64,000 bases of DNA from Candidatus Uhrbacteria bacterium (GCA_016188385.1 JACPHV010000002.1:101682-165681), one strand, 5' to 3'; counted from the stretch's first letter, positions 1 to 56,290 are shown. A program made the numbers and translations. The notes: generated by a model not told the origin, from the sequence alone.

Positions 1-1254
1 CATCGCATCAAATCGGTATCAGCGTATGAAATTCTGGATTCTCGAGGCAATCCGACTGTTCGTGCGCGCGTGGAATTGGATAATGGCGTGAGTGGAGTGG
101 CATCCGTGCCTTCGGGGGCATCAACCGGAATCCATGAGGCGCTTGAATTGCGCGACAATGATCCGAAACGTTTTAACGGCAAAGGTGTAGTAAAAGCCGT
201 CCGTAATGTAAATCGTAAAATCGCACCCTTGTTGCGCGGATATGATGTTCGCGATCAGCGATCAATTGATAGCGCAATGATCGGTCTGGATGGCACTGAA
301 AACAAATCACGTCTGGGAGCAAACTCAATCCTGGGCGTATCACTCGCATGCGCGCACGCGGCTGCATCATCGACTAAAAAACCGCTTTACCGATATTTGC
401 GCTCTCACACAAAGCTCGGAACAAAAACGCCTTATCGGCTGCCTTATCCGACAATGAATATTCTCAATGGCGGCAAACATGCCGACAGTGGGCTCTCCAT
501 CCAAGAGTTCATGATTATACCTCAAAGGCCGTCCCTTCGTGAACGCGTGCGTATCGGCGCTGAAGTATTCAGCGCATTAAAAAGATTGCTAGTAAAAAAG
601 AACTTTTCAACGCTCGTTGGAGACGAGGGCGGATTTGCTCCCCGCATTGGAACAAATGAACGCGCGCTGAAATTGATCATGAACGCAATCACGACGGCCG
701 GATATCTGCCCGGTAAAGATGTCCTCCTTGGGTTGGATCTAGCTGCGTCGGAATTCTATGATTCTACCACAGGACTATACTCGCTCGAACACGATAAAAA
801 GCCGATTTCGTCCGATCGTATGATTGAAATCATCGATGATTGGAAAACCCGCTATCCGTTATACATTATAGAAGATCCCCTTGATCAAGATGACTGGGCC
901 GGTTGGGCGCGTATCACAAAAAAGCTACGTCACAAGGTTAAATTGGTGGGAGATGATCTTTTTGTCACCAATATCAAACGGCTCAAGGCTGGAATTGACA
1001 AGGGAGTCGCAAATGCTATCTTGATAAAACTTAATCAGATTGGCAGCGTGTCAGAAACGCTTGATTGTATATCTCTGGCGCAGAAGCATTCTTATACGGT
1101 AATCGTATCGCATCGATCCGGCGAGACAGGCGATACCACCATCGCTGACCTTGCGGTAGCAACCAATTCCGACTATATCAAAACGGGGAGCTTATCGAGA
1201 TCGGAGCGGGTGGAGAAATATAATCGACTTATCGAGATCGAGCAGGAAATTTGA
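1..1254 (+). CDS. eno: Enolase (phosphopyruvate hydratase), 5' end outside the window
   Basis: Frame-1 translation from base 1 reads HRIKSVSAYEILDSRGNPTVRARVELDNGV, the enolase N-terminal region. The C-terminal SGETGDTTIADLAVA and NQIGSVSE enolase signatures are present. The ORF track starts at an internal Met at 70. Confidence 0.9.
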   Translation, partial: HRIKSVSAYEILDSRGNPTVRARVELDNGVSGVASVPSGASTGIHEALELRDNDPKRFNGKGVVKAVRNVNRKIAPLLRGYDVRDQRSIDSAMIGLDGTENKSRLGANSILGVSLACAHAAASSTKKPLYRYLRSHTKLGTKTPYRLPYPTMNILNGGKHADSGLSIQEFMIIPQRPSLRERVRIGAEVFSALKRLLVKKNFSTLVGDEGGFAPRIGTNERALKLIMNAITTAGYLPGKDVLLGLDLAASEFYDSTTGLYSLEHDKKPISSDRMIEIIDDWKTRYPLYIIEDPLDQDDWAGWARITKKLRHKVKLVGDDLFVTNIKRLKAGIDKGVANAILIKLNQIGSVSETLDCISLAQKHSYTVIVSHRSGETGDTTIADLAVATNSDYIKTGSLSRSERVEKYNRLIEIEQEI

Positions 1255-1335
1255 GACTGATGAAATATAGCTTCCCGGGACAGGAGCTGAAAGACTGGTA
1301 ACCTCAGATATTTTGCTACAGACTCAATTAAGATT

Positions 1336-2935: not shown

Positions 2936-3997
2936 ATGATTTCATTTCTTGAATCATTTTTCGGGCGATTCGCTCACGATCTTGGCATCGATCTTGGTAC
3001 GGCGAACACGCTCGTTTATACAAAAGAAAAGGGGATAGTAATAAACGAACCTTCAGTAGTGGCGGTAAATATCCGAACCGACCAGATATTAGCTGTCGGA
3101 CAAGAAGCATATCGAATGGTTGGTAGAACGCCTGCTCATATAGTCGCAAATAAACCCTTGGTTGACGGGGTAATCTCTGATTTTGAGGTTTCTGAAAAAA
3201 TGCTTAAATATTTTTTTCGAAAAGTTAATAAAGAGACATTTCTTTTCTCGCCTCGCCCCCGCGTCGTTATCGGAATTCCATTGGATGTCACCGAAGTGGA
3301 GCGCAAAGCGGTTGAAGATGCCGTACACTCCGCCGGCGGCCGCGAAGTGTACCTAATCGAGCAACCCATGGCCGCAGCCATCGGAGCCCGTCTGCCGGTG
3401 CAAGATTCGAGAGGATGGCTCGTCGTGGATATCGGAGGCGGGACTACCGATATCGCTGTCATCTCGCTGGGCGGCATTGTCACTTCCCGTTCATTAAAGA
3501 TTGCCGGCAACGAGCTGAATGATGATATCATTAAATTTTCGCGAGATTATTTTAATGTCTTGCTCGGCGAGCGCACCGGAGAGCACATTAAGATAAAGAT
3601 CGGCACGGCAGAACATCCTACCGAACCACTCTATATGAAAGTGCGCGGACGCGATTTACTCACCGGCCTGCCGAAGGAAATCATTATCGATTCACTGCAA
3701 ATTCGTGATGCGCTTTCAAAAAGCGTGCGTACGATCGTAGACAGTATACGCAGCACCATCGAAAGTACGCCACCGGAGCTTGTTGCCGATATTGCGGAGA
3801 ACGGCATACTTCTTACCGGCGGGGGTGCGCTCTTGAAAGGATTGGATAGATTAATCGCTGAAGCGACCGGCATACCGGTTATCATAGCGGAAGATCCTCT
3901 CACATGCGTCGTGAGAGGTACCGCTATTCTGCTTGATGATATTGATTTGCTCAAACGCGTGGCATCAATGGAGCCGCAACAGCGATATCCTTTATAG
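2936..3997 (+). CDS. mreB: Rod shape-determining protein MreB (actin-like ATPase)
   Basis: The DLGIDLGTANTLVY phosphate-1 motif and VVDIGGGTTDIAVIS are present, with MreB-like sequence throughout. The start is chosen at the MISFLESFF Met; the ORF track uses an upstream Met at 2921. Confidence 0.85.
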   Translation: MISFLESFFGRFAHDLGIDLGTANTLVYTKEKGIVINEPSVVAVNIRTDQILAVGQEAYRMVGRTPAHIVANKPLVDGVISDFEVSEKMLKYFFRKVNKETFLFSPRPRVVIGIPLDVTEVERKAVEDAVHSAGGREVYLIEQPMAAAIGARLPVQDSRGWLVVDIGGGTTDIAVISLGGIVTSRSLKIAGNELNDDIIKFSRDYFNVLLGERTGEHIKIKIGTAEHPTEPLYMKVRGRDLLTGLPKEIIIDSLQIRDALSKSVRTIVDSIRSTIESTPPELVADIAENGILLTGGGALLKGLDRLIAEATGIPVIIAEDPLTCVVRGTAILLDDIDLLKRVASMEPQQRYPL

Positions 3998-9084: not shown

Positions 9085-9735
9085 ACGAAAATAGGCTGTG
9101 CGATCACCTTCGCTTTATGGCGTGGGAGGAAAGTCCGAACATCCCCTCCGTTTTTGACGGGGGGACAGGGTAGTCGCTAATGGCGACCTAGGCGTAATGC
9201 AGCGGTGCTGATTTGCGGATATGAAGCGTGCTTATTGGCACGTTGCAATTTCGGACAGCAAACTACTGCATGATGCTTACGGGAAAGTGTCCTATCTCCA
9301 AAATCGAGATAGGATTCCCCAGCAATTATATTGATGGGGAGCAACAGAAAAGTCTTTCTGAAACGAAGGACCTCTCGAGGAAGATTCGAGAAGGAAGATA
9401 CCGCCCCGATCCGGGGTAAGGGTGAAATGGTGTGGAAGCTCAATCAAGAGCTGATCATGGAATACGATTATTTGTCAACAAGACATACATGGTTTCGATT
9501 CGCTTTGTTCTTCTGTTCTTTTATATACGATCGGTACCTGATTTGTGTTGACCGTATCTATGGGTAAGAGCGCACCAGAGCCGGAGTGATTCGGCTGCTT
9601 GGCAAACACCTACCTGATGCAAGAGCTCAATACGCTCGCTTGAACCCCCTTGGGGATTACCTGATGACAGTAAAGTCGTCACGCTTTTCCCTAATCGGGC
9701 TAGAGAGATGACCGCAGCATGTATAATTCGGGAAG
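9085..9735 (+). ncRNA. rnpB: RNase P RNA (bacterial type, expanded helices)
   Basis: The universally conserved blocks occur in order: GGGAGGAAAGTCCGAAC (P4 5' strand), AAGGGTGAAATGGTGTGG, GGGTAAGAGCGCACCAG, GGCAAACACCTACCTGATGCAAGAGCTCAATA (compare E. coli GGUAAACUCCACCCGGAGCAAGGCCAAAUA), and AATCGGGCT (P4 3' strand that pairs with AGTCCGA). The ends are approximate. Confidence 0.7.
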
Positions 9736-11373: not shown

Positions 11374-12525
11374 GTGTCAATTATGAAGATAGCATTAATA
11401 CATGATCATCTCGTGCAAATAGGCGGCGCTGAGCGCGTCTTGAAGGTATTTTCTGATTTATACCCTGATGCACCTATTTATACACTTATCTATGATGAAA
11501 GCCGGTTTCATGATTTTATCGACAGATCGAGAATACGTACTTCGTTTCTACAAAGCGTGCCTTTCAGCAAGTCTCGTTATCAATGGCTCTTACCTTTGAT
11601 GACAACCGCGACCGAGCTTCATGATCTTAGCAAATTCGATGTTGTACTCTCAAGTTCATCGGCATTTTCAAAAGGAGTGATCACAAAATCAACTACAATG
11701 CACATATGCTATTGCCATACCCCCACTCGGTACTTGTGGACAGACTCGCATGCGTACACAAATGATCTTAAGATACCCGGATTGATTAAAAAAGGGGTTC
11801 CTTTTTTGCTTTCTCAATTACGTTTATGGGATCAATTGGCTGCAAATCGCGTTGATCACTTTATCGCGAATTCAAAAACCGTCCAAGAACGAATTATGAA
11901 ATATTATCGAAGGACAAGCGATTCAATTTATCCGCCTGTTGCGCTTGATAAATTTTATATTTCCGAAAAGGTTGATAATTATTTTTTAGCGGGCGGCCGG
12001 CTTGTCTCATATAAAAAATTTGATATGATATGCGAGGCATTTAACAATCTGGGACTGCCGCTTAAAATATTCGGGATCGGTCCCGAACAACAAAAACTTA
12101 GAAGAATTTCCAGGAAAAAAAATATTGAGTTTCTCGGAGCCGTCACCGATGCACAGCGTGCTGATCTCTATAGTAAATGCATAGCGTATATTCACCCGCA
12201 AGAAGAAGATTTCGGAATTACCGCGATTGAAGCGATGGCTTCCGGCAGGCCGGTAATAGCGCTCGCCGCGGGCGGAGCTTTGGAAACGATTGTCGACGGG
12301 CTAACCGGTACATTTTTTTATGATCAAGATTGGCCCGCCCTCGCTGATGCCGTCATCCGTTTTGATGCCACGAAATATAATCCGGAAAAGATACGCCGCC
12401 ATGCGATGCAATTCAGTGTAGATAGATTTAAGAAAGAAATTACGGGATATGTTGATCGCGCGCTGGAACGCTGGCAGGATGTGCAACACATGAAACGTCT
12501 ACGGGAGACAAAACGGTTATTTTAA
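11374..12525 (+). CDS. Glycosyltransferase family 4 (retaining GT-B)
   Basis: The EX7E motif region EDFGITAIEAMASGRPVIA is typical of GT4/RfaG-like enzymes. It sits directly downstream of the priming sugar transferase. Confidence 0.8.
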   Translation: MSIMKIALIHDHLVQIGGAERVLKVFSDLYPDAPIYTLIYDESRFHDFIDRSRIRTSFLQSVPFSKSRYQWLLPLMTTATELHDLSKFDVVLSSSSAFSKGVITKSTTMHICYCHTPTRYLWTDSHAYTNDLKIPGLIKKGVPFLLSQLRLWDQLAANRVDHFIANSKTVQERIMKYYRRTSDSIYPPVALDKFYISEKVDNYFLAGGRLVSYKKFDMICEAFNNLGLPLKIFGIGPEQQKLRRISRKKNIEFLGAVTDAQRADLYSKCIAYIHPQEEDFGITAIEAMASGRPVIALAAGGALETIVDGLTGTFFYDQDWPALADAVIRFDATKYNPEKIRRHAMQFSVDRFKKEITGYVDRALERWQDVQHMKRLRETKRLF

Positions 12526-12958: not shown

Positions 12959-13134
12959 ATTGAGACTGTAGAAAAATATCAGACGTAACTTTCTTCCGGC
13001 TCCTTTCGGCGCCGTTTGAGCCAAAAATGGCTTCTCACTCGTCGAAATACTCCAGTATTCCGACGAGTTGCGGCACTATTTTTGATCTCAAACGTCATCC
13101 AAAATGACCGGGAAGCTATTTTTCTACAGCCTCA
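12959..13134. repeat. TIR-bounded element of about 176 bp (MITE/REP-like), copy 1
   Basis: Left end ATTGAGACTGTAGAAAAATATCAG; right end GCTATTTTTCTACAGCCTCATT (17/20 inverted match). Internal conserved blocks are TTCTTCCGGCTCCTTTC and GAAATACTCCAGTATTCC. Homologous to 15222-15393 in inverted orientation. Confidence 0.6.
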
Positions 13135-13268
13135 TTTTGATATAAAAATCGTTCCATCTTGTCAAAGTAATTTCTAGATGCTCATACAAACACATTGATT
13201 GTGCGACACATGAAGGTCTTCATTATTTCATGGAAAACGAAAGGGGATACGATTAGAATGTATTTGAA

Positions 13269-14255
13269 TCAAGTCGTTTTACCTCCATGATGAAATTTTC
13301 TGTGAATATCACGCAAGCGTTTCGATGTAATATGGGTATAGACTTGAGTCGTCGCTATATTGCGATGTCCGAGAAACTCCTGAACAGTACGGAGATCAAC
13401 GCCCTGCGTGAGAAGATCTGTGGCAAAACTATGCCGTAGCGTATGTGGGGTCGCCAAAAAAGGAAGCCCTGCTTTTTTTGCATATTTTTGGACAATACCC
13501 TCAATTGCCCTCGTTGTAAGGCGTTTTGAGTCAGTTTGAGGGCCCTTGAACCTAATAAAGAGCGGTTCATAATCATCATTACGCGAAGATAGGTATGTTC
13601 TCACCCACATCAAAGCCTGCTGTGAAAAATACACTGTTCGCGTATATCCGCCCTTGCCAATAATACTCACTTCAAAATCCGGCGCATGAAGTACGCCCTC
13701 AAATTGCTTACGGTCGAGAGCCGCGAGTTCCGCAACACGAAGACCTGTGGAGAAGAGCGACTCTAGAATTGCTCTGTCACGAAGCCCTGCACTCGTTTTT
13801 GGATTAGCCATTTGGCAAAGTTTATCAACCTGCGTACCGTCAAGAAATTTAATCAGCCGTTCACGCCGCTCCTTTGGTAGTTTAATTTTTTCAGTCGGAA
13901 GCGATTCTATATCCCTTTCATGAAAAAATGCAAAAAACATCCTAAGCGCGATTAAATAACGGCTTTGCGTCGAGCTTGAGAGCGAGGGAGATAACTTTCT
14001 TGTTTTGTTTGGACGTCGCGCAAGCCATAATCGGTATTTCTGTATATGCTCCGCGGTAATTTCTCTTGGGGTAATCGTTGCAAGATTATTTAATTTCAAC
14101 CATGTAATAAATGATTTCAAGAATCTACCGTAATTCTTTATGGTATTTAATGATAATCCTTTTTCAACCTCGCTATATTCAAGAAAGTCAATATAATATG
14201 CGGGTGTTGGTTTTTGCATATATTCTACATATGAGAAAGACCCTATCGCTCTCAA
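13269..14255 (-). CDS. Tyrosine site-specific recombinase (XerC/XerD / phage-integrase family)
   Basis: C-terminal catalytic region HTLRHSFATDLLTQGVDLRTVQEFLGHRNIATTQVYTH (R..H..R..Y). The N-terminal SAM-like core-binding domain reads LSLNTIKNYGRFLKSF. The true start may be the internal Met (MQKPTPAYY) at about 14219. Confidence 0.8.
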   Translation of the reverse strand: MRAIGSFSYVEYMQKPTPAYYIDFLEYSEVEKGLSLNTIKNYGRFLKSFITWLKLNNLATITPREITAEHIQKYRLWLARRPNKTRKLSPSLSSSTQSRYLIALRMFFAFFHERDIESLPTEKIKLPKERRERLIKFLDGTQVDKLCQMANPKTSAGLRDRAILESLFSTGLRVAELAALDRKQFEGVLHAPDFEVSIIGKGGYTRTVYFSQQALMWVRTYLSSRNDDYEPLFIRFKGPQTDSKRLTTRAIEGIVQKYAKKAGLPFLATPHTLRHSFATDLLTQGVDLRTVQEFLGHRNIATTQVYTHITSKRLRDIHRKFHHGGKTT

Positions 14256-14472
14256 GATGCTCGAGTCCTGGTTTGCCTGCCCAGGCGTTCATAGCTAACA
14301 CAAATTCAATTTACCTACATTATACGAAGTATAATACACCATAAAACAACCCCTTCATAGCTCCTTTCTGTGGATAACCGATATCAGATTGCAAAAGAAT
14401 TCCGCCGAACCTATCATTTTTCACCCGCGCGAAGGCGGGTATCCAATAAAATGACATAATCACCAGCCTGAG

Positions 14473-14504
14473 ATAAAAACAAGGGGTGTCATAGACAGCC
14501 CCTT
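14473..14504 (-). terminator. Putative rho-independent terminator
   Basis: On the minus strand this reads AAGGGGCTGTCTATGACACCCCTT followed by GTTTTTAT. It lies 31 nt after the stop of the minus-strand ORF 14535-14981. Confidence 0.4.
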
Positions 14505-14534
14505 ATCACGATAAAATGAAACACGATATGTCCT

Positions 14535-14981
14535 CTATTTGCCGCCTTCGCCCTCCCAGGACTCGAGCATCTTTAGATCGTCCGGGTCCAAGGGACCCGT
14601 GTCCTTGACCGGCTTGTGTTGGTTATACCCTTGCCCTGTGTTGAATCCGTTGGCGTTCTCCTCATTCCTCGCCTCCATGGCGCCCCCTTTCTGGCAGCTC
14701 TTGCGCTGCCGATCGTTGATCCATGCGTCCAGTATCTGTCGCAGCGCAATCGCTGCTGTGAGATACAGCAAAGCCGATGCTGTTAAACCGCTTACTGCCG
14801 CAATAATTGTCCATGTGGCCGAATCAATTGTCGATATCCTGTTTGCTAAGCTTTGCAGTGACTCGCTCGGGTCCCTGCGCGGTATGAATAGGACTGCCGG
14901 TACGACTGTTAGGATCATGGCTGAAATCCAGTATTCTCCGCGAGACATCGAGTATCCTCCTCCACGACCGAATACGGGCAA
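14535..14981 (-). CDS. Hypothetical small membrane protein
   Basis: Two predicted TM helices (ISAMILTVVPAVLFIP and WTIIAAVSGLTASALLYLTAAIAL). A terminator hairpin lies downstream. Preferred over the overlapping plus-strand ORF 14539-15042. Confidence 0.4.
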   Translation of the reverse strand: MPVFGRGGGYSMSRGEYWISAMILTVVPAVLFIPRRDPSESLQSLANRISTIDSATWTIIAAVSGLTASALLYLTAAIALRQILDAWINDRQRKSCQKGGAMEARNEENANGFNTGQGYNQHKPVKDTGPLDPDDLKMLESWEGEGGK

Positions 14982-15221
14982 ACTTGGTTGCGCGATATCG
15001 TTTCCATTGCTTCTTCAACGAACAATGCCTCCTGAAAAGTAAGTATGCAGTGGAAACAACCCACATGTCAACGGATCACTATCCCCCATCATGTATATTG
15101 AATTTATGCGTCGCACAATTTTTGATGTTGCTTTCTCTATAACATTCAATGTATAAACCGCCTTATACATTGAATGTTGCAAATCTTTCTTGAATATCGC
15201 CTACCCGGCAAAGCAGCTTAA

Positions 15222-15393
15222 GAGACTTCTGAAAAAGAGCTTCCAGGTCCTTTGCGATTCAATTTCGTTCCAAAAAGGATGATGAACGCGAAGGAATACT
15301 GGAGTATTCCGACAAGTTCAGCGCCTTTCTTGGAAGGAAATTGGGCGGAAAGGAGCCGGAAGAATTACATAATGAACTTTTGCAGAGGTCTCT
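15222..15393. repeat. TIR-bounded element of about 172 bp (MITE/REP-like), copy 2, inverted relative to copy 1
   Basis: Ends are CTTAAGAGACTTCTGAAAAAG and CTTTTGCAGAGGTCTCTTAAGG (20/22 inverted). The internal blocks GGAATACTGGAGTATTCC and GGAAAGGAGCCGGAAGAAT match copy 1 in reverse complement. It contains the TAA stop of the M23 peptidase gene. Confidence 0.55.
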
Positions 15394-16616
15394 TAAGGAA
15401 GATATTTCAGAGGGTCAACGGGAATACCATTAAGGCGTACTTCAAAATGCAAATGCGGGCCAGTTGTGAGCTTGCCAGCTCCTGCCGTACCTGGCATACC
15501 GCCTGAAAAACCAATAATATCGCCCTTTTTAATATAGGTGTCCTCCGGAACGATAATCCTGCTTACATGCCCATAGACCGTTGCGAGGCCTTGGTCATGG
15601 ACTATCATGATATAGCTATAGCCCATACCGTTGTCTTTCGCGCGCGCGACATAACCGCTTGCCGCGGCCTTCAGTGGTGTTCCTTGATATGCCCTGATAT
15701 CAATTGCGGAATGTTCAAAGATATGTCGGAACGGATAATCGGGATCTCGGAAGTAGGTAGTGATGCCGCGTGAAGGGTCAACCGGCCAAGAAAGTGAAAC
15801 GGGCTTATTGTCAAACAAATCCAATCGCTGGCGTATTGATTTTTCCAACTCTGAAATCTCGCTATCAGCTGCGACTTGTTCGGCTCGAGCTTCTATCAAA
15901 AGCTGCTCATATTTTTCCTTCGAAAGGACTGACTGCAACACGAGTACCTCTTTTGCTTTTTTTTGCTCTTTAAGCAGATCTCCTGAAACTTCAAGCGATT
16001 GTCGCAATTCTTGCAGCCTTACCTTGCTCTGTTCAAGCGTATTTCTCTGTGCAAGCAATTGATCTTTCAAGACTTTAAGCCGCTCAAGCGATTGGAATAC
16101 TTCTCCGTTTACGGTCTCAAGATATTGGATGGTGTCAAAAAAATCAGAAAAGCGTTCATTCGTTAAAAATAGCTCGAGATAATCGCGGCGTTCTTGCTTA
16201 TGGATCTGTCGTACAAAGGCAGCGAGATGCTCTTTATACAACGCGATATCCGTCTCTTTATCTTGAATTTGAACCGTTGCTTGTTCCACCTCGAGTCCAA
16301 GCTGCGCTATCTCCTCTGCTGCTGCTTCGATAGATAACTCCGTCTTTCTGACGCCATCTTCAATGTTAGCGATATCTGATTGCAAGGATGCGGCCTCCTG
16401 AAGTCGCGCGCGAATAGCTCGTTCATAGGTATCAATTTGCGAACGCAAGGATGAGACTCTGCTGCGCTTGTCGCGAATCTGTTCGTTTAATTCCAGTATG
16501 GAAATGTCATGAGATGTCCCCTGCGCACCGACATCGTCGCTCACGATGGCAATTCCGAACAATGTCATGACAAAAGCACATGCGCTCAATACGATGATCC
16601 GTTCTAATACCTTCAT
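15393..16616 (-). CDS. Peptidase M23 family murein endopeptidase with N-terminal coiled-coil (EnvC-like)
   Basis: Signal/TM at the N-terminus, then a long coiled-coil. The C-terminal LytM/M23 domain has HxH (GPHLHFEVRLNGIPVDP). Confidence 0.8.
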   Translation of the reverse strand: MKVLERIIVLSACAFVMTLFGIAIVSDDVGAQGTSHDISILELNEQIRDKRSRVSSLRSQIDTYERAIRARLQEAASLQSDIANIEDGVRKTELSIEAAAEEIAQLGLEVEQATVQIQDKETDIALYKEHLAAFVRQIHKQERRDYLELFLTNERFSDFFDTIQYLETVNGEVFQSLERLKVLKDQLLAQRNTLEQSKVRLQELRQSLEVSGDLLKEQKKAKEVLVLQSVLSKEKYEQLLIEARAEQVAADSEISELEKSIRQRLDLFDNKPVSLSWPVDPSRGITTYFRDPDYPFRHIFEHSAIDIRAYQGTPLKAAASGYVARAKDNGMGYSYIMIVHDQGLATVYGHVSRIIVPEDTYIKKGDIIGFSGGMPGTAGAGKLTTGPHLHFEVRLNGIPVDPLKYLP

Positions 16617-16638
16617 AACAATACATGGTGATCGATAA

Positions 16639-16689
16639 ATTGAGACTGTAGTAAAATATCAGCGGGAAGCTATTTTTCACCAGTCTCAA
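16639..16689. repeat. Solo hairpin derivative of the TIR element (copy 3)
   Basis: TTGAGACTGTAGTAAAATATCAG-CGGGAAGCTATTTTTCACCAGTCTCAA. A perfect 9-bp closing stem (TTGAGACTG/CAGTCTCAA). The gltX stop codon (cta at 16670-16672) and its last about 6 codons lie inside it. Confidence 0.55.
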
Positions 16690-18184
16690 ATTGCAATTTT
16701 TTTTCGGCATCCTTGATGCGTTCCACTGATCGTTTCTTGCCCAGCACTGAAGCGACCTCAAACGGACTCGGGCTTGCCGCCAAACCCGTTAACGCAACCC
16801 GCAACGGCCATAATACAACACCGTTTTTCATGCCCGCACTTTGAATCTCTTTTTTCAGCTGATCTTCAAGATTCTCCGGGCTATATTCATCCGCCGAAAT
16901 TTTTTGAAGTGATGAATATGCGATAAGGAGTCCTTGCTTGATTTCCTCGACTGGGGTTTTTTTCCATATAAGCAACGCGGCGTCATATTCCAGTTCTTGC
17001 GTGAATACATAGGAAAGACGATGAGGTATCTCGCGTAAACGGTGGATACGTTCTTGCTCAAGTCGGACGATCGATTCAAGCTCTGTTTGAGATAACCGTC
17101 GTCCATCTGTCGAAACCGAATAACTCTCCCCTTCTCTTACGATATACCCTTCCTCAATCAAATACGGGATACACCATGAAGTTAATTCGGGAAGACTCAT
17201 CCCGCGAATATACATGGCGTTGAACCACTCTAATTTCTGTAAATCAAAAATGGCGCCCGACTTATTCACGCGTTCCAAAGAAAACTCCTTTTCGAGCTCC
17301 TCCAATGTAAATAGCTCGCGATCGTTGCCGGGATTCCATCCAAGAAGCGCCATAAAATTAACCAGCGCTTGCGGAAGGTATCCTTCGGTGCGATATTCAA
17401 GCAGCGATACCTTATTTTGACGCTTGCTTAATTTTGTCCTGTCAGGATTCAAGATCAATGGCAGATGAGCAAACTCCGGTACGGTAAATCCGAATGCCTC
17501 ATCGAGAAGAATTTGTTTCGGTATATTGGATATGTGTTCCTCTCCCCTGATAATATGGCTTATCTTCATCTGATAATCATCGATTACTACGGCGAAATTA
17601 TAAAGCGGCGCGTCAAAATCCTTCGCAATGATAAAATCATCAAGCGTATTGGTATCAAAGGTGAGTTCCCCACGAATATGATCAACGACGCTTAACACTC
17701 TGTTGCGCGGTATGCGAAAACGAAGCGTAGAAGATTTTCCGCTTGACTTCATTGCGGCACGTTGTGATGCGGATAGGTCTGCGCATGTGCCACTATAGCG
17801 AGGCGGCTGCTTCGAGAGTACTTGCATTTCACGCTCCTGTTCTAACTCCTCTTTGCTGCAATAGCATGGGTACACAAGATCTTTATCCGCCAATTGGCGC
17901 AGAAAGGGAGTGTAGGAGCTCATTCTTTCACTTTGGCGATAGGGCGCGCACTCCCCGCCTGTTCCCGGACCCTCATCCCACTGTATGCCAAGCCATTTCA
18001 AGCCTTCAAGTATATCATCCTCAAATTCCTTTTTTGAACGCTCAATGTCAGTATCTTCGATGCGGACGATAAAAACACCATTATTTTTTTTTGCGAACAA
18101 ATAATTAAAAAGCGCCGTACGCGCGGTACCGATATGAAAATACCCTGTCGGTGATGGTGCGATTCGTGTTCGTATCATGCCCAA
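16670..18184 (-). CDS. gltX: Glutamyl-tRNA synthetase
   Basis: HIGH motif (PSPTGYFHIGTART) and KMSKS-type KLSKR. 504 aa. Confidence 0.9.
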   Translation of the reverse strand: MGMIRTRIAPSPTGYFHIGTARTALFNYLFAKKNNGVFIVRIEDTDIERSKKEFEDDILEGLKWLGIQWDEGPGTGGECAPYRQSERMSSYTPFLRQLADKDLVYPCYCSKEELEQEREMQVLSKQPPRYSGTCADLSASQRAAMKSSGKSSTLRFRIPRNRVLSVVDHIRGELTFDTNTLDDFIIAKDFDAPLYNFAVVIDDYQMKISHIIRGEEHISNIPKQILLDEAFGFTVPEFAHLPLILNPDRTKLSKRQNKVSLLEYRTEGYLPQALVNFMALLGWNPGNDRELFTLEELEKEFSLERVNKSGAIFDLQKLEWFNAMYIRGMSLPELTSWCIPYLIEEGYIVREGESYSVSTDGRRLSQTELESIVRLEQERIHRLREIPHRLSYVFTQELEYDAALLIWKKTPVEEIKQGLLIAYSSLQKISADEYSPENLEDQLKKEIQSAGMKNGVVLWPLRVALTGLAASPSPFEVASVLGKKRSVERIKDAEKKLQFETGEK

Positions 18185-18242
18185 AGAATGCAGACTTACT
18201 TAAAGACGGTAGCAAAATACAGGAAGCTACGGTTCAACAGTC

Positions 18243-19028
18243 TCAACTTTTTGTTATGATAATCTTTGTTCCTATCGGTGTCCAGTCATAAAGCAATTTC
18301 GCTTTATCTGTCCCGAGGCGAATACATCCGCCTGATACCGGCGTTCCGAGATGATCTTCGCCTTCTTTCCTGCCTCCCGGCCATTCCGGAAGCTCATGGA
18401 TCCCGTATTTACCCGCGCGAATACCATTCCCCCCTAGTCCCATCCAGTACGGCATCCATAGCTGCGCCGGTCCTGACCATGCCCTGCCGGATTTATTCAC
18501 AATCTGAAACTCCCCCACCGGGGTCGGCATACCCGGCTTACCCGTTGATACGCGAGCCGAGTCTAACATCATATCTCCTAAATAATAGCGAAGCCGTTGA
18601 TCGTCAAGCGCTACCTCTATTCTCTTTTTCAATTTGATTTTTGATTTGCTTCGAGGATCGTAGCTTGCCTCTATCTCCGTACGGTCGTCAAACCCATCGC
18701 CATCCGTATCATTTTTTGCGGGGTTTGTTCCGATTGAAATCTCATACGCGTCAGTAAGGCCGTCTTGATCAGAGTCGGCTTCTGTCAGCTTGATCGCTTC
18801 CGGCGTAAGAGGTGAATACCCATTGAGCGCCTCAATCCAATCACTGTATCCATCGCCATCCGTGTCTGCGTTAAACGGATCAGTCCCGTAACGCAATTCA
18901 TCATGATCTTGTAATCCGTCGCCGTCGCTATCAATATTCTTTTTTGTATCTGCCTGCGTCTCGGTTGGCGCACAGACATAATAGAGTAACGCTAAAGCCA
19001 ATACAAAACGAGCGGCTATGAGCGCCAT
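18243..19028 (-). CDS. L,D-transpeptidase (YkuD domain) fused to TSP3 calcium-binding repeats
   Basis: N-terminal signal peptide, then five D-x-D-x-D-G-x-x-D repeats (DSDGDGLQDHDE, DTDGDGYSDW, DSDQDGLTDAYE, DTDGDGFDDRTE). The C-terminal YkuD catalytic motif is HGT....GGCIRL. The start is trimmed to the Met that avoids overlap with the upstream gene; the track start is 19088. Confidence 0.75.
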   Translation of the reverse strand: MALIAARFVLALALLYYVCAPTETQADTKKNIDSDGDGLQDHDELRYGTDPFNADTDGDGYSDWIEALNGYSPLTPEAIKLTEADSDQDGLTDAYEISIGTNPAKNDTDGDGFDDRTEIEASYDPRSKSKIKLKKRIEVALDDQRLRYYLGDMMLDSARVSTGKPGMPTPVGEFQIVNKSGRAWSGPAQLWMPYWMGLGGNGIRAGKYGIHELPEWPGGRKEGEDHLGTPVSGGCIRLGTDKAKLLYDWTPIGTKIIITKS

Positions 19029-19032
19029 AGCG

Positions 19033-20088
19033 TTAATAGGGATAATCACCGCCCTGTAATCGATAATCGGGGAATAACTCATCTTCATTCAAATCGCTTG
19101 GCACAGCAGGCGATGTATCGAACTTGTTGAATAACGAATTCAGTTTTTCAAGATTTTCTTCCGTGTTGGCTATGAGCGGCAGTATAAATTTGGCCGATTC
19201 CACAGTGAAGGCGTCAGAAATTCTCTTTTGGGAATCTTGGCTCATCAATCCCCACAGTGTCCCGATTATGATGAGTATAAAACCAAAGATTGACCACGCT
19301 GCGGCGGCGGCTCGTTCAGAGCGAAATGCAATAAATGGCGTCGAACGCTCAACAGCCTCTACATCACGATACTGAAAATATCCGTACGCGATAAAAAAGG
19401 GGAAAGAAAAATATAAGACCACAAGCGAAAGAAACAAAGCAAGTATCCATCCGCCGGGTATTCCCAGAGATAGATAATATATCGCGAGTAAAAAAGTTGT
19501 CATGATAGCCATGGCAGCCGCGTATCTTCCGAACACTTTCATAAAAAGTCCGTGCAATAAATAACGGCTTTTCGCGAGGGTCTCTGTACCGCGCTCCTTT
19601 TCAAACAAGACGATATAGACTGCAAAGTAATACCAGATTGAGAAGAGGATCGGCAAGATTCCGGTAAACGAAGAGCCATACAGCACTAACGCGAGCAGAA
19701 TAGCTATCCAGTAGAGTGACGCAAATCTTTGACGGGCGAGGCCAAACGCCTTCTTGACTGAAATAATCTTGCCGCGCTTGTTATATTCATGCACGAGATA
19801 CGCCGCCGCAGCGAATAGATAACTGTATAGATATCCGAATGCAACCAATATTCCAAGATTGACCAATGAAACGAATGATTGCACAAACTGCGGCTGTTCC
19901 CTCACCAGCGCAGAAAGGATTCCGCTGATAAATAGGTTTGCAAAGCCGCTAGCCGCGATCAATGCGGTAATGCCGGCAAGCTGGCTAAACAACGCTCTGT
20001 AGACGTCGTAGGTGCGCGAAAGAAGCGACCCGACACCGGGTAAATTAACAATCGGTATAAAACCGTTTTGTTTTAATCTCATACGCAT
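19033..20088 (-). CDS. Hypothetical polytopic membrane protein
   Basis: About eight predicted TM helices. No recognisable motif. Confidence 0.5.
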   Translation of the reverse strand: MRMRLKQNGFIPIVNLPGVGSLLSRTYDVYRALFSQLAGITALIAASGFANLFISGILSALVREQPQFVQSFVSLVNLGILVAFGYLYSYLFAAAAYLVHEYNKRGKIISVKKAFGLARQRFASLYWIAILLALVLYGSSFTGILPILFSIWYYFAVYIVLFEKERGTETLAKSRYLLHGLFMKVFGRYAAAMAIMTTFLLAIYYLSLGIPGGWILALFLSLVVLYFSFPFFIAYGYFQYRDVEAVERSTPFIAFRSERAAAAAWSIFGFILIIIGTLWGLMSQDSQKRISDAFTVESAKFILPLIANTEENLEKLNSLFNKFDTSPAVPSDLNEDELFPDYRLQGGDYPY

Positions 20089-31258: not shown

Positions 31259-31464
31259 TGCGTCTTATTATGGTTGCTATAATTCATGTATTACGTATAA
31301 TACGCCTATTGATTATTGTGGGAGTCTTCCGCAATGTATCACTCGAGGCGGAGCATTGTGGCGGCACATGTATACAGTTCATTGCGGACGCTTAGCCTCT
31401 CTACGCGTAGCTTTCGAGTTGGAGCGTGTCGATAGTACGCACGCTTCGCCCTCGGAGATTTTTT

Positions 31465-31535
31465 CGGGCTGGAGTATGCCGGTAGTACGCACGCTTCGGG
31501 TGCGTGTAGACTGGGTTCAATTCCCAGCAGCCCGA
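31465..31535 (+). tRNA. tRNA-Pro (anticodon CGG)
   Basis: CGGGCTGGAGTATGCCGGTAGTACGCACGCTTCGGGTGCGTGTAGACTGGGTTCAATTCCCAGCAGCCCGA. The 7-bp acceptor is CGGGCTG/CAGCCCG, the D-stem GTAT/GTAC, and the anticodon stem CACGC/GCGTG with loop TTCGGGT (U33, G37). The T-arm is CTGGG-TTCAATT-CCCAG. G8 replaces the usual U8. Confidence 0.65.
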
Positions 31536-31716
31536 AAAAATCCCCGAGACAATTACATACGGACGAAGTCCGTGTAGACTGGGTTCAATTCCCAGCAGCC
31601 CGATGGGCGGCGAGTATTGATGAAAAAATATCCGTAGAACTGCCGAAGGCAATGTTTAGGCGGACAGGGAAACTATGTTTCTGCAGTCTCAACCTATACT
31701 ATACAAGTGATGCCAC

Positions 31717-45179: not shown

Positions 45180-47744
45180 TTATTTGCTGTAATCTGAATT
45201 TGTATCCGTGCCTGTAAAAGGGTCATCTGCTCCTGACTGCAAAGTACACTGCCGTCGAAGTTTTGATTGAGATAACAAAGGATATTCGTATACTCCGCAG
45301 AGTTCGTACTTATCCAATGAAGTATTTGAAGCAGGCGTATGGAGATACGTATAGGCGGAAAGTTTTTTTGACGCCAACACATTTTTTACATTATCCCCTC
45401 GATCCACGATCGGAGGAGTCGTCGTGCTTTGCGACGGATCAAGCGGCATGGAAGCGCGCAATGCTTTGCCAAGCTCTTGCGCCCACGAAGGCCAGCCGGA
45501 AATGGTCTGTCCCAATGTATAACTCCCCGCGGAAAGAGCCGGATAACAGGTTGGATTACATTTGCCGCGCACTCGATATTGTTCAAGTTGATCATGGATA
45601 AAGCTGATATGCGCTGATCGCTGCGTATCACGGCGCAACGCCGCGCTCGCGTCAGCATCATCTTGCGGTGTTGCCAGACGAATGGTACGCATCAACTCCG
45701 TAAAGACCGCGCGCGACGGTCCGGCAGGATTCGCGCTGGTGGTAAAATTCAAAATCCGATAGGAAGTAATTGATGAGTTAGTATCCAGGACAGGCACGCT
45801 TATATAGTATCCTGTCCCGTCTTGGACCGCTGGGAATCCATTCACTATGGTATTCGAAGGGCGTTGGTTAGGATTGAGCTCATTACGCGCATACCATACG
45901 TCAGGAGAGAACTTGTTCGGATTGCGATAAGCGCGCATAACAATTAAATCAGTTGAGTTGGTAAACCGATAAAAATACTCTTCGAGCGGAGTGGAGCTTC
46001 CTGCCGAGAATCGATCCTTGACTTCGGTCGGATCACTCATTAATGCGGGCAGTGTTAATCCCTTCTTTGCGACACAGTAGGAAAGCCGATATTGATATTT
46101 ACCGGACGGATCGGCTGCCGTACCCGGCGTCTCCCAGAATTGATAACAATCTTTAATAGTGCATTGGTCCGCGTGCCCTGACGCATAACATTGATCGGCT
46201 GTCCACGCCGAAGATGTGGGATCGCATTGCTCCCCGCTATCTACCTGTCCATTGCCGCATGTTTCATCCGGTGTTACGACAGGCGTTGAACCCGTTGGTT
46301 TGATTACATCATTCACGAGAATAATCTGTGCCTGCTGGACAGTGCCGGCAAGAGGCAAAACAAATACGGTAAGTATCGCGCTACCGGGTTGATTTGTATT
46401 TTCTACGATCAAATCTGTTTCCTTGCCTGCGGAACCGATTTTTTGCACTTCACGAAAAGCCGGGCTCTCGCTCAACTCCCATCGGACTTGTCTGATCTTA
46501 TCCGTCCCAATCAAAGAATTGTTTTGCGCGTGCACGCGGAGCGAATACCGATGCTGGTTGCCCGTACGGCTTCCTGATCCCTTGTCGCTATCGTCTTCAC
46601 AGTCATCTGCGGTGCAGGAAAATCTGTCGATATCTATCGGTCGACCGTTGCTGTCTATGATTACGTGTTCAAAGATATTAGGGCTGCCTTGTTTGTCCGG
46701 TCTGCCGACGCATTGTACCGGGTTTGAGCCGGTTATGGTACATGATTGGTATGGGTGTTTATTTCCAATCGAGAGCGAAGCGGATCCCGCTACGCCATCT
46801 ACCCACGCGGTAACGGTTCCTGTGCCCGTGGACGTTGCCGTATCGCCAAGCAGCGTTCGGATGTGAATTCGTTTTGCTCCTGATTCGTCTGACAGTCGGT
46901 ATCTATCCGGCTTGTCGACCTTCCAGCGCACAAGAGAATCCGAAATCGCAACAACATTCCCTTGCAAATCCTTTACTTCCAACTCAAGCGCGTGTTGATT
47001 GTTTTGATCATTACCCGAAGTAAAGGAATCGTCGCGGCACGCATTGCCGATACAGCCAAACATGTCACGAGGCAAGAATTGGCCGTTTGACCGTATCCGC
47101 ATCGAACGAACCTGGAGTATTGACAAGAGATTTTCTACTTTTATCTCCGCGCTGAACGTCTCGGATCCTTCGCCATCAAGATTAGCGGTTGTAACGATTG
47201 CTTTAAGTGTTACGGGCTGCGTGGTATTTACTCCGCTATTTGTCAAATACACTTCCGTAGAACTTGCGCCGAGATTTGTCGAATTATCAGAAGCGCGAGT
47301 GATGATAATCGGTGAATTTGCGGGCGAAAGACTCCACTCAATCTTCTCAATAGGGTGCACTCCCGCGATATCATCCAGAGAAATAAAGCTGTTATCCTTA
47401 TCATGCAGCCGGAGTGAATATATTCTTTGGTTGCCGATAAAACGCGAGCTTTGGTCATTGGCGCAAGTATTGCCAAAACAGCTGAACCTGTCCGTAGTCA
47501 CCGGCTTTCCATTCGCGTCGATCGCCGCTCTTCGCGTTGAGTCCGTAGATACAGCCGCATGCGGCCCTCCTGTACAAGACGAACGGCCGCCGGTCAAGCA
47601 GGTGGCTCGCGGATGCTTGTTGGATACGGTCATTTCTAGCGTTGTCGTACCAGTCGCGTTAGCAACCGAAAGTTTTAGCAGTCCTTCTCCTTCGGAATCG
47701 GCATTCGTAAGCTCAACGCTACGGCCGATCCCGGACAAACGCAT
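45180..47744 (-). CDS. C-terminal module block of the giant repeat protein (separate ORF owing to a frame break at about 47.72-47.78 kb; possible pseudogene fragment or assembly artefact)
   Basis: 854 aa. It has three copies of the FxC.GN.C.DD...GNQH module of about 110 aa and one CGNGQVDSGEQCDP Cys-rich unit. It is colinear with, and about 45% identical to, the region of the upstream giant ORF that follows the duplicated 175-bp patch. The residues just upstream of its Met in the same frame (ISWELTASADA) continue the homology. Confidence 0.55.
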   Translation of the reverse strand: MRLSGIGRSVELTNADSEGEGLLKLSVANATGTTTLEMTVSNKHPRATCLTGGRSSCTGGPHAAVSTDSTRRAAIDANGKPVTTDRFSCFGNTCANDQSSRFIGNQRIYSLRLHDKDNSFISLDDIAGVHPIEKIEWSLSPANSPIIITRASDNSTNLGASSTEVYLTNSGVNTTQPVTLKAIVTTANLDGEGSETFSAEIKVENLLSILQVRSMRIRSNGQFLPRDMFGCIGNACRDDSFTSGNDQNNQHALELEVKDLQGNVVAISDSLVRWKVDKPDRYRLSDESGAKRIHIRTLLGDTATSTGTGTVTAWVDGVAGSASLSIGNKHPYQSCTITGSNPVQCVGRPDKQGSPNIFEHVIIDSNGRPIDIDRFSCTADDCEDDSDKGSGSRTGNQHRYSLRVHAQNNSLIGTDKIRQVRWELSESPAFREVQKIGSAGKETDLIVENTNQPGSAILTVFVLPLAGTVQQAQIILVNDVIKPTGSTPVVTPDETCGNGQVDSGEQCDPTSSAWTADQCYASGHADQCTIKDCYQFWETPGTAADPSGKYQYRLSYCVAKKGLTLPALMSDPTEVKDRFSAGSSTPLEEYFYRFTNSTDLIVMRAYRNPNKFSPDVWYARNELNPNQRPSNTIVNGFPAVQDGTGYYISVPVLDTNSSITSYRILNFTTSANPAGPSRAVFTELMRTIRLATPQDDADASAALRRDTQRSAHISFIHDQLEQYRVRGKCNPTCYPALSAGSYTLGQTISGWPSWAQELGKALRASMPLDPSQSTTTPPIVDRGDNVKNVLASKKLSAYTYLHTPASNTSLDKYELCGVYEYPLLSQSKLRRQCTLQSGADDPFTGTDTNSDYSK

Positions 47745-50700
47745 GGCATCCGCACTCGCCGTAAGTTCCCAGGAAATCAGCTACGATGCGGTGCTGGTTG
47801 CCGGGCATGGCTGAACTCGCGTCATCAGCGCAGGAGTTACCGATACAGCCGAACGCGTCAGAAGGAAGATAGTCGCCGTTGGTGGAGAGTCGGATGGCGG
47901 AAATAGCGCGCGTTACCGGTGTGGGCTCTACCACATCTTGTTCCCCATCATTGTCATCATCGTCATCTTCCTCTCGTATTCTGTCGGCAAGCTCGGTATC
48001 GTTCACGAGCACGATTTCTGTCGTGCGCACCGGCCCTTGGACAGGAAGCACAGTCACCGTTAAAGTCGCGCTGCCGGGTTTATCAGTATTTTCAATCACT
48101 ACTCTTTCTCCCTTCGTGCCCATAACTCGAAGAGGCCGCGGACCAAACGCATTCGATGCGCTCAATGTCCACTCGATCCGCCTGATCTGATCAAGCGGTA
48201 ATAAACGATTGTTCTGCGCGTGCATGCGCGCGTCATACGTATGCTGGTTTGCGGCGCGTGCTTGTTCACGATCATCTTCACAGGAGTCGCCTCTGCATGA
48301 AAAGACATCGCGCGAAATGGGTCTGCCGTTTGAGTCGATTGTAATGGTGTCGAGTATATTCACATTTCCCTGTTTGTCCGGATGTCCAACACATTGCCTG
48401 TCAGTGCCCGTCCCGGTACATCTCTGATAGGGATGTTTGTTGTCCAGCGCGATAGACGCGATGGCGGAAATACCATCGACACGAGCAGTGATAATACCGG
48501 AGCCCGTGCTTGTCGCCGCATCATTGATCAATGCCGAAACGTTCACTCTGCTGGTGCCCTGTTCGCTGGATAGATCAAAGAGGTCTTTACGGTCAAGCGA
48601 CCAATGCACTTTTGCCTGATCAATCGAAAGAACGCGCCTACCATCGGTGACTACGAGCTCAAGCGCATGCTGATTGCCGGCTGATCCGGCGGCTCGGTCA
48701 TCTTCGCAGCTATTCCCGGTGCAGCCGAAAGCGTCTTGATTCAAAAACTGGCCGTTGGATTTGATTAGGATGTCTCTGACAAGAAATGTTTGCACCTGAT
48801 TAATGACCTGAATGGAAGCTGTAATCGGATTCCCTTTACCGGTCACGGGCGTGACAGTCGCTGAAAGGGTCGCGGATCCGTCAACTTCGGTATTGGTGAG
48901 AATAATATCGAAGTCTTTAGTCCCTTCCGGGTTGTTCCGTGACGGGTCAAGATCGCGAAATGCCTTTCGGGAAGATGAGGCGTGAATGAGAGACCATTCA
49001 ATCTTTGCTATGTTTGTCGGATCGGCAAAGCTGCGGTTTTTGTTGTGCAGGCGCAATGAATACACGCGCTGATTGCCGGAAGTACCGGCAACGCGGTCAT
49101 TGAGGCAGTTATTTCCAAAGCAGGTGAATACATCAGTCCCGAGCGGCCGATCATTCGCTTCGATTGCGGCTTCGGCGATTTCATCTGCTCTGCCAGCCTG
49201 ATCGGGCCCGCCGATGCAACCGGCACGATTCGCGGTGAGACATTCCCGACGAGGAAATTTGTTTACGATCGGAATCGCTTTTGTCACTGACGAGCCGGAA
49301 ACGGAGACTGTCAGCGTAGCGCTTCCCTGATCAGCCGTATTTGTGGCAAAAATTGTCTTGCCGGAATCGCGGGACAAGACGACTGTGCTTGTTGCGCCTG
49401 AAAGCGCCCAGGAAATCCGCTCATCGGGTACCGAAAGAGCTTTGCCATTCGCGTCGAAGAAATCAGCTACGATGCGGTGCTGGTTGCCGGGCATGGCTGA
49501 ACTCGCGTCATCAGCGCACGAATTACCGATACAGCCGAACGCGTCAGAAGGAAGATAGTCGCCGTTGGTGGAGAGTCGGATGGCGGAAATAGCGCGCGTT
49601 ACCGGTGTGGGCTCTACCACATCTTGTTCCTCATCATTGATATTCTCGAGTTGTATTGTCACTCGTACATTCTGCTGTACCGTTTCATTTTTCGATCCGG
49701 TCGCTTTAACCGTTACAGTCGAGGTGCCATTTTGATTTTTCGGAGTCACCTGTATTGTGGGGGTGGACAAGGAACTTAAATCAACCAGAGCGGTACTCGT
49801 AGCCGTGGGTCCGGACGCAAACCATTCGATCTTGACAGGAGAGACTTCGCTTCCTTCCGCCGAATACGCCTTGATACGATAGGTATGCTGATTACCGCTT
49901 CTGACGGTATCTTGATCACCGGAACATCCTGTAAGAGCAGCGCAAGTAAACAAATCGGTTGTGGAAGCGTTCAGGGCGGTATTGATGAATATCTCAACAG
50001 TTGCGATTTCGGCAATCTCCGCGACAGGCGTGACTGGACCAGCGGATTTTTGGATCCATACTGATTTCTTGCACTGTTCGCCAAACCAAGAATTGCCTTC
50101 TTTCATTTGTAAAATCAGATTGACACGGCCTTGCGCAAGGGGCGTATAGGGACGGACGCCGAATGTGACGCGTTCCCCGGGTGCGATGGATCGTGATAAC
50201 GGCACAACGTCAAGTTCGGGCACTCTCACGGTGCCTGACGAACGCAGAGCAAAGATATGTGTCGCGGGATTCCATGTCTTGGTGCCCGCATTCTTAAGCG
50301 AAAATTCCAACAGGAAATCTTTATGTTCGTCAGTGATAAGCGGCAGATTTTGAGCTCGGCACGCATTCGTGCACGCATTCGTGTCATCAGTATCTCCGTC
50401 GTCACATTCCTCCGATCCTTCTTTAATCCCATTTCCGCACACTCCTTTGTTCAGACGACAATCGGTGCGGCAACGATCCGTATTGGATCGATTACCATCG
50501 TCGCACTGTTCCCCAGTCTCCAGTTTACCGTTGCCGCAGTACGGCAATGCCGTGTCACGCAGCGTGCAATCGTTGCGACAAAGATTGGCGTCAATGCGGT
50601 CGCCGTCGTCGCACTGTTCCGTTCCTTCCTTGATGCCGTTGCCGCAATAACCGGTATTGAGCTTGCACGCACTCGTACACGCGTCTGTGTTATCGAGATT

Positions 50701-56273: not shown

Positions 56274-56290
56274 CGTCAGGAACACGTGCG

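Follow-up and report, generated by a model that had tools for sequence, protein, structure and literature searches.

We analyzed a 64,000-nt stretch of DNA (hereafter, the window) from Candidatus Uhrbacteria bacterium (GCA_016188385.1 JACPHV010000002.1:101682-165681) and found that it carries a dispersed family of palindromic elements, ~175 bp long when complete, whose termini contain the stop codons of four housekeeping genes. Elements of this family occur in other Patescibacteria, are missing from the equivalent sites of syntenic relatives, share a covarying, strand-specific hairpin fold, and tend to lie with the better-folding strand in the direction of the flanking genes. On balance, we think it probable that the family is a non-autonomous MITE (miniature transposable element with inverted repeats), similar to the ERIC palindromes of enterobacteria, that has spread in Ca. 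Uhrbacteria and other Patescibacteria, lands at stop codons, and is co-transcribed as an RNA hairpin with a role at the 3' end of the message. A first-pass annotation of the window had already proposed a dispersed, inverted-repeat family resembling MITEs or repetitive extragenic palindromic (REP) elements. All of the sequences it quoted are present as given, and its proposal is borne out by the homologs in other Patescibacteria and by the empty sites in syntenic relatives.

When the terminal 19-mer TTGAGACTGTAGAAAAATA was used as a query with up to three mismatches, seven matches were found in the window versus 0.00 expected from 100 shuffles. Given these matches and the homologs in other genomes, the counter-explanation offered with the original proposal, i.e., that the similarity arises by chance among A/T-rich hairpins, fails. 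Repeat finding, BLAST, a profile hidden Markov model (HMM), and a covariance model concurred in identifying six family members in the 64 kb. The terminal inverted repeats of the element read TGAGACTGTAGAAAAATA...TATTTTTCTACAGTCTCA; the terminal arms are 18-19 bp long and 97% paired, copy lengths range from 48 to 209 bp, and there is no conserved open reading frame (ORF). Two copies, mutually inverted, are full-length: c1 (175 bp; 12960-13134), whose better-folding or "sense" strand is the minus strand, and c2 (15217-15397), whose sense strand is the plus strand and whose termini are the variants TTAAGAGAC...GTCTCTTAA. Both had been recognized previously as full copies, and rightly so, but they are only 65% identical; c2 is in fact nearer to copies from other genomes (69-80% identity) than to c1. 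Copy c1 lies 12 nt past the stop codon of a NUDIX gene and 135 nt past that of a gene for an Xer-like recombinase, and is situated between convergent genes.

Three shorter copies are internal-deletion derivatives that retain both terminal arms. One of these (50 bp; 16640-16689, minus strand) consists of the two arms and a 12-nt loop, the interior being deleted, and was supported by its fold and by the covariance model, with a score of 66.8 bits on the minus strand versus 35.1 on the plus strand. It lies 23 nt ahead of the start codon of the gene for an M23 peptidase. A 77-bp copy (1251-1327, plus strand) located between the genes for enolase and gpmI was detected by motif search, HMM, and covariance model, and a degenerate 48-bp copy (18203-18250, minus strand), located between an L,D-transpeptidase gene and gltX, was detected by the covariance model. 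The latter had been taken for a relative possessing only the right inverted repeat; however, the segment at 18221-18250 is the right half of a complete, degenerate copy whose other (left) arm is TTAAAGACGGTAGCAAAATA. The sixth member, which had been given the same label, is a fragment of ~31 nt (31662-31692, minus strand) that comprises one end of the element, the sense 5' end (TTGAGACTGCAGAAACATAGTTTCCCTGTC), and adjoins a tRNA-Pro gene with partial duplications. Of this tRNA-Pro(CGG) gene (31464-31536), the 5' 37 nt recur at 31412-31448 (84% identical) and the 3' 36 nt at 31568-31603 (97%), within a region that spans 31412-31603; these partial repeats may have been left behind when an element inserted in the tRNA gene. 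The sole new match to the covariance model in the window, at 3182-3231, lies inside the coding sequence of mreB (...DFEVSEKMLKYFF...) and was rejected as a chance A/T-rich match.

The loci were compared to those of syntenic relatives (L020-L025). In three of the relatives, GltX is 81% (L020), 77% (L023), and 74% (L021/L022) identical to that of the window. The gene order 351aa-LDT-gltX-M23-...-recombinase-...-NUDIX-glycosyltransferases (LDT, L,D-transpeptidase) is common to the window and these three relatives, and the order gap-eno-gpmI-mreB is common to the window, L024, and L025. A search with nhmmer found zero copies of the element in L020-L025, and the element was absent from all five of the sites compared, the junctions there being short or overlapping. 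In relatives, the gap between the L,D-transpeptidase gene and gltX is 10-23 nt, as opposed to the 48-bp copy in the window; gltX and the M23 gene overlap by 4 nt (e.g., in L020) or lie 20 nt apart, as opposed to the 50-bp copy; and eno is separated from gpmI by 6 nt (L024) or 13 nt (L025), as opposed to the 77-bp copy. Where c2 follows the M23 stop in the window, relatives have an unrelated short spacer (empty in L020, L021, and L022). Since syntenic relatives have no copy at any of the five sites, the window copies are to be read as insertions and not as ancestral sequence. An independent short-read assembly (L001) contains the same copies in the same places, and its contig ends within c2. 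Repeats such as these break short-read assemblies and can mislead the annotation of gene 3' ends.

Homologs elsewhere were sought with a degenerate pattern for one terminus. Full-length copies occur in Ca. Uhrbacteria JACQSA01 (two contigs), in Patescibacteria H32-bin131 (two contigs), in a metagenome-assembled genome labelled Gammaproteobacteria (two contigs), and in several metagenome contigs. The contigs of the Gammaproteobacteria-labelled genome look like sequence of the candidate phyla radiation (CPR) and may have been mis-binned. Full-length homologs elsewhere are 65-88% identical, and identity between genomes is 70-88%. At two different loci of a single Patescibacteria genome (L005 and L009), the copies are virtually identical (identity rounds to 100%), and this pair indicates, as judged by sequence, a recent duplication to a new site. 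Both copies (L005 1653-1862 and L009 2423-2632) also have 36 additional nt that form a G+C-rich hairpin within the element's apical region. In the Gammaproteobacteria-labelled genome, one full-length copy (L003 318-515) is situated 23 nt upstream of the start codon of the EF-Tu gene (tuf), and a promoter-like TTGACA-17-TATACT site lies immediately upstream of the element.

A phage origin was rejected, there being 0 matches to the element in viral contigs. Membership in a known RNA family was likewise rejected: only tRNAs reached the gathering threshold of Rfam 15 in the window, and searches with c1 and the L004 copy returned nothing but noise at E <= 10. A search of the literature turned up the terminal sequence in no paper, nor any account of MITEs or REPs from CPR/Patescibacteria. 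The element is a family not described before, although its behavior is known from ERIC, Correia, bcr1, QMITE, and REPIN elements.

The location of the copies with respect to gene ends is precise. Element termini contain the three stop codons that the first-pass annotation had named, namely the TAG of gltX (16670-16672), the TGA of the L,D-transpeptidase gene (18243-18245), and the TAA of the M23 gene (15393-15395), and the enolase stop (TGA, 1252-1254), located in the 77-bp copy, adds a fourth case. Three of these genes end at the residue position at which their counterparts in element-free relatives end. The L,D-transpeptidase (YkuD; 18243-19088, minus strand), whose stop position is that of L020 and L021, ends in IIITKS* in the window versus IIISKT* and IIITET* in relatives; the M23 peptidase (15393-16616, minus strand) ends in LKYLP*, as it does in relatives; and enolase (418 aa) ends in EQEI* versus EQEL* and EREL*. 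Because the stop position is unchanged in relatives without the element, the element would have landed exactly on the ancestral stop, or replaced it in phase, in these three genes. PDB enolases are 17-19 residues longer, which hinted at truncation of the window enolase by the insertion; this was ruled out, since CPR enolases, including those of element-free relatives, are natively 416-421 aa and terminate at the same position.

GltX alone has an altered tail. The last six codons of gltX (glutamate-tRNA ligase; 16670-18178, minus strand) and its stop are derived from the element, and the sequence following the conserved ERIKDA is EKKLQFETGEK, versus NGRIERMV, QLRVAQMI, and IVRIGNIASQNGKI in relatives. 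The comparison of orthologs that had been suggested as a check thus shows FETGEK to be element-derived, followed by the TAG stop; the residues KLQ that precede it, which had been assigned to the element as part of KLQFETGEK, lie outside. Accordingly, the earlier view that the element targets or creates gene 3' ends holds for the new GltX tail but not, as regards creation, for the other three stops. A feature of the element itself bears on this geometry: the consensus 5' sense end, T-TGA-GAC-TG-TAG-AAAAA-TAG, has stops at nt 3 (TGA), 11 (TAG), and 19 (TAG), and stops in all three frames are present there in 8 of the 11 full copies, so a frame entering from this end terminates within six codons. 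On the opposite side of the element one frame is open for 76 nt. At L004 (4864-5511), the ORF of a HAD-family hydrolase enters the element by 76 nt from the antisense side, and ~25 C-terminal residues of that protein would be element-encoded. Where relatives lack the element (L020 ~3745-3760; L021 ~9670-9680), the sequence is ATATGAGAAAT at the gltX stop and ATAGAGGCG at that of M23. These contexts faintly resemble the 5' end of the element, TATGAGAC/TGAGGC, a resemblance that could reflect either a micro-homology target preference or coincidence.

Eleven full copies were aligned for structure, and the structure was predicted on those same sequences, which favors structure in the counts that follow. 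The aligned copies fold as a single, continuous, imperfect hairpin with a consensus energy of -57.1 kcal/mol for the sense strand (5'-TGAGACTGTAGAAAAATAGCTTCC) versus -38.6 for its complement, and 94.7% of cells are paired on the sense strand. Changes on both sides of a pair were seen in 21 of 61 pairs, compared to 9.2 +/- 1.8 in shuffles (0 of 500 reached 21) and 3-8 pairs in slid controls. The sense strand has 47 G·U cells versus 5 A·C cells, and the minimum free energy of the sense strand is better by 10-21 kcal/mol in 11 of 11 copies. Strand-specific covariation through G·U pairs was reportedly described for ERIC by Wilson and Sharp in 2006; in the present family it is seen directly. Individual full copies have energies of -80 to -112 kcal/mol and are rod-like, with conserved unpaired stretches. 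In the window, c1 (sense RNA -80.7 kcal/mol, z = -9.2) and c2 (-85.5 kcal/mol, z = -9.8) gave strong folds (z ~-9 to -10), and the short copy at 16640-16689 folds at -18.9 kcal/mol (z = -4). As modelled, the element thus forms, along its full length, a single long and imperfect hairpin that is strand-specific and carries compensatory changes.

The orientation of the element usually follows that of its neighbors. By our own tally of the 11 informative loci, i.e., those with flanking genes all in one direction, the sense strand is co-directional with the flanking gene or genes in 10 (two-sided binomial p ~0.01). Within the window, the orientation of the element switches with that of the genes, from plus (1.2 kb) to minus (13-18 kb). 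The neighboring genes are mutually unrelated (eno, gltX, LDT, M23, NUDIX, TrmB, CNNM, VirD4-like, DoxX, CMAS, PurL-like, and tuf), which rules out a gene-specific cis-regulator. Genes of the window are housekeeping genes plus the one Xer-like recombinase; its GltX and enolase match, at 100% identity, NCBI proteins from a 184-kb contig of a Ca. Uhrbacteria metagenome-assembled genome.

To account for these observations, we propose that a ~175-bp mobile palindrome and its 48-77-bp internal-deletion derivatives would be moved in trans by a transposase. Copies are non-coding, shorter than ~500 bp, and equipped with terminal inverted repeats, and they are dispersed and polymorphic for presence or absence between related genomes, as is characteristic of MITEs. 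In gene-dense genomes, only the A/T-rich bases around stop codons may tolerate landing, and with stops available in three frames an insertion at the end of a gene, or slightly within it, would cost at most a few residues. Landing near stops, together with the three-frame stops, would explain both the stop overlaps of enolase, L,D-transpeptidase, and M23 and the six-residue tail of GltX. Following insertion, the element would be transcribed along with the upstream gene and its RNA would form a rod-like hairpin of ~60 bp, maintained by selection on the transcribed strand; as modelled, the element is probably a hairpin at the 3' end of a shared mRNA. Most likely, it would act as a 3' stem-loop or as a site of processing by a double-strand RNase of the RNase III type and thereby change the stability of the mRNA or the punctuation of the operon, in line with reports on Correia and ERIC elements (PMC10969869, PMC3184786). 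Processing of the RNase III type is suggested because a near-continuous duplex of ~60 bp is the kind of substrate that RNase III cuts.

Several observations weigh against this proposal. For the short copies at 18203 and 1251, the predicted fold is not better than that of shuffled sequence, and thus any RNA role is not universal in the family. With DNA energy parameters, the asymmetry between strands persists (-46.1 versus -36.2 kcal/mol). The sole exception to the orientation bias is c2, which is antisense to its operon: its sense strand is antisense to the M23 gene, whose TAA lies in the c2 terminus. No transposase or autonomous partner with the same ends was found in the window or in the 25 fetched loci. 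Finally, flanking sequences are mixed, with TA/TA at four copies, ATT/ATT, ATT/ATT, and possibly AGT/AGT at the three short copies of the window, and none at the rest, and because all flanks are A/T-only and partly palindromic, chance matches to a target duplication are likely.

In a more tentative and rather unlikely version of the proposal, the element would be more than the decaying remnant of a transposon: a mobile module of structured RNA that selection at the RNA level preserves in CPR bacteria and that homes to stop codons. Homing might operate through micro-homology between the TGAGA(C) terminus and the stop-codon contexts found in relatives. If true, such a module would supply streamlined genomes, which have hardly any intergenic DNA, with ready-made 3' hairpins, or RNase III punctuation, between operon genes.

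Genomes of CPR/Patescibacteria, at ~1 Mb, are packed with genes to an extreme degree and are generally said to contain little mobile DNA. In the present case, a MITE-like family appears to be actively colonizing the few bases between core genes (eno-gpmI and LDT-gltX-M23) and to rewrite the end of an aminoacyl-tRNA synthetase, a case that would show how streamlined CPR genomes tolerate selfish DNA. The strand-specific covariation also makes the family a clean test case for whether RNA function keeps palindromic repeats.

Alternatives in which the hairpin matters as DNA, or does not matter, have to be weighed against the co-transcribed MITE. Since the strand asymmetry persists with DNA energy parameters, a hairpin of single-stranded DNA is conceivable, and we rejected the comparison of RNA and DNA parameters as a discriminator because both give the asymmetry. 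The element could then be REPIN/RAYT- or IS200/IS605-like, a substrate of an HUH (Y1) transposase whose orientation bias stems from the direction of replication. An element-wide hairpin with compensatory changes agrees with this, as does the inconsistency of the target duplications, which HUH transposition predicts, and REPINs are likewise long hairpins that undergo compensatory evolution (PMC3116915). Nevertheless, we regard it as unlikely, if a real rival: there is no Y1 or RAYT gene in the window or the fetched loci, and none of the window ORFs scanned matches Y1_Tnp; the arms are terminal inverted repeats of 19 bp, rich in A/T, and not short, G+C-rich REP stems; and orientation flips with the local genes within 20 kb, which fits transcription better than replication. 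The A/T-rich arms and the lack of a Y1_Tnp match among those ORFs also led us to reject membership in the REP/REPIN-RAYT group. A little less likely still is a MITE that derives from a DDE transposon (e.g., TA-targeting and IS630/Tc1-like), moves by cut-and-paste, and is purely selfish, with a hairpin that is a by-product of the long inverted repeats and has no RNA role. Terminal inverted repeats, internal-deletion derivatives, the TA at both ends of four copies, the decay of short copies, and the "wrong" orientation of c2 all count in its favor. A transposase that binds duplex ends, however, explains neither the double compensatory changes, which run throughout the interior and are not limited to the termini, nor the preponderance of G·U (47) over A·C (5) on one strand, nor the bias of that same strand relative to genes.

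Three further readings were weighed. Improbable, in our view, is a family of stand-alone small RNA genes, rod-like in the manner of 6S RNA and duplicated without being mobile. The very stable, covarying rod with its conserved unpaired stretches and the promoter-like site at L003 speak for such genes, whereas the promoter scan was empty upstream of c1 and c2 (sense strand), Rfam gave no match even at E <= 10, and copies abut or overlap coding sequence, leaving no space for a promoter or terminator of their own; moreover, close relatives have no copy at any site, and truncated and decayed copies exist. Very improbable is the bidirectional intrinsic terminator suggested by the first-pass annotation. 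Although hairpins at gene 3' ends, and c1 between convergent genes, would suit it, neither strand has a T-run after the stem (post-stem sequences are ATAACA, ATTTAT, and ATTAAG), the base of the stem is A/T-rich, and the terminator scan called no site at any copy. Copies also lie within tight operons (eno-gpmI, LDT-gltX-M23, and L014, with gaps of 2 and 6 nt), the fold is strand-asymmetric, and the fold of two of the three short copies does not surpass that of shuffled sequence; the terminator interpretation is therefore not supported.

Least credible of all is the reading that the copies serve the adjacent tyrosine recombinase as sites of recombination (inverton arms, or attC-like or dif-like sites), or that c1 and c2 make up a composite mobile unit that carries it. 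The idea draws on the inverted arrangement of c1 and c2 around the recombinase gene and on a likeness to attC sites, which are imperfect palindromes of variable length used as one folded strand. The recombinase gene (13269-14219, minus strand) nonetheless occupies the same syntenic position in element-free L020 and L021, and because of this we regard it, on sequence grounds, as a resident neighbor and context, not a part or partner of the element. Its product is Xer-like (99.9 bits to the integron model TIGR02249 versus a cut-off of 265), and copies in other genomes have no recombinase nearby. An integron was rejected on that score, on the element termini (TGAGAC...GTCTCA, not the attC core RYYYAAC...GTTRRRY), and on the flanking genes, which are core housekeeping genes in syntenic order; a composite transposon or inverton was rejected on the synteny of the recombinase without elements and on the 65% identity of c1 and c2.

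The favored reading, a MITE-like palindrome that is co-transcribed, places the family among several known systems. ERIC (or IRU; ~127 bp) is likewise an imperfect palindrome along its whole length with size variants from internal deletion or insertion; it occurs in transcribed intergenic regions at gene 3' ends, has been reported with TA flanks, and alters mRNA level or stability (PMC3184786, PMC10969869). The present element differs in its host, Patescibacteria, and in its length (175 bp), and there is no evident sequence relationship as judged without direct comparison to ERIC, Rfam giving no match. In Coxiella burnetii, the termini of QMITE1 and QMITE2 extend 1-50 bp into the 3' ends of housekeeping genes that remain functional, with little change in protein length, and their stable stem has been proposed as an RNase III substrate (PMC5896051). 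The element described here also ends on gene 3' ends without much change in protein size; however, its sequence is unrelated, and whereas the QMITE host is an intracellular pathogen rich in pseudogenes and insertion sequences, the host here has a streamlined CPR genome with no insertion sequence in view.

Correia elements (CREE) of Neisseria, which are 100-155 bp long with terminal inverted repeats of ~26 bp, shorter internal-deletion forms, and a TA target, are co-transcribed, and RNase III cuts them where the repeats pair (PMC10969869). They resemble the present family in size, terminal inverted repeats, and internal-deletion forms, but their interior is not a continuous covarying hairpin, and they carry promoters and IHF sites, neither of which is evident here. 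The bcr1 element of the Bacillus cereus group (~155 bp) is dispersed, strain-variable, and transcribed, with short direct repeats at its ends and with compensatory changes that keep its RNA structure, although some copies have lost structure (PMC3184786). Our family shares with bcr1 the dispersal, the compensatory changes, and the copies without structure; in contrast to the consistent 5-bp duplication of bcr1, its flanks are a mixture of TA, 3 bp, and none, and sequence and host are unrelated. REPINs, finally, are long hairpins of two inverted arms that spread within genomes and are maintained by compensatory change (PMC3116915). Their REP arms are short, G+C-rich, and RAYT-linked, unlike the A/T-rich arms and single continuous palindrome found here, where no RAYT gene was seen.

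The region around the recombinase gene has additional features of its own. A 33-nt inverted repeat (85% complementary; 14239-14271 and 14556-14588) brackets 284 bp directly upstream of the gene and is missing from L020 and L021. Its arm at 14556-14588 encodes the C-terminus of a 148-aa ORF (...DPDDLKMLESWEGEGGK*), and the plus strand of the arm at 14239-14271 encodes a similar alternative tail (DPIALKMLESWFACPGVHS*); as judged by these sequences, inversion at the repeat would swap the tail of the ORF in the manner of a shufflon. Also upstream of the gene, 23 nt at 14309-14331 are 100% identical to L020 (5780-5802), the relative with 81% GltX identity, in surroundings that have diverged. This segment holds the palindrome ATTATAC-GAA-GTATAAT and could be a dif-like site or a promoter/operator. 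Another palindromic motif, (A)TTGTGCGACACA(T), occurs at 12480-12494, 13198-13214, and 15103-15119 and in equivalent places in L020 and L021; it is conserved in these relatives to either side of the recombinase region and is a candidate binding site for a regulator. A perfect palindrome with 16-nt arms (15141-15178; AACATTCAATGTATAA ... TTATACATTGAATGTT) lies in the interval that separates the 148-aa ORF from c2. Farther along the window, an ORF of 2918 aa (47719-56475, minus strand) is accompanied by many overlapping ORFs in alternative frames, which suggests that the region is repetitive coding sequence.

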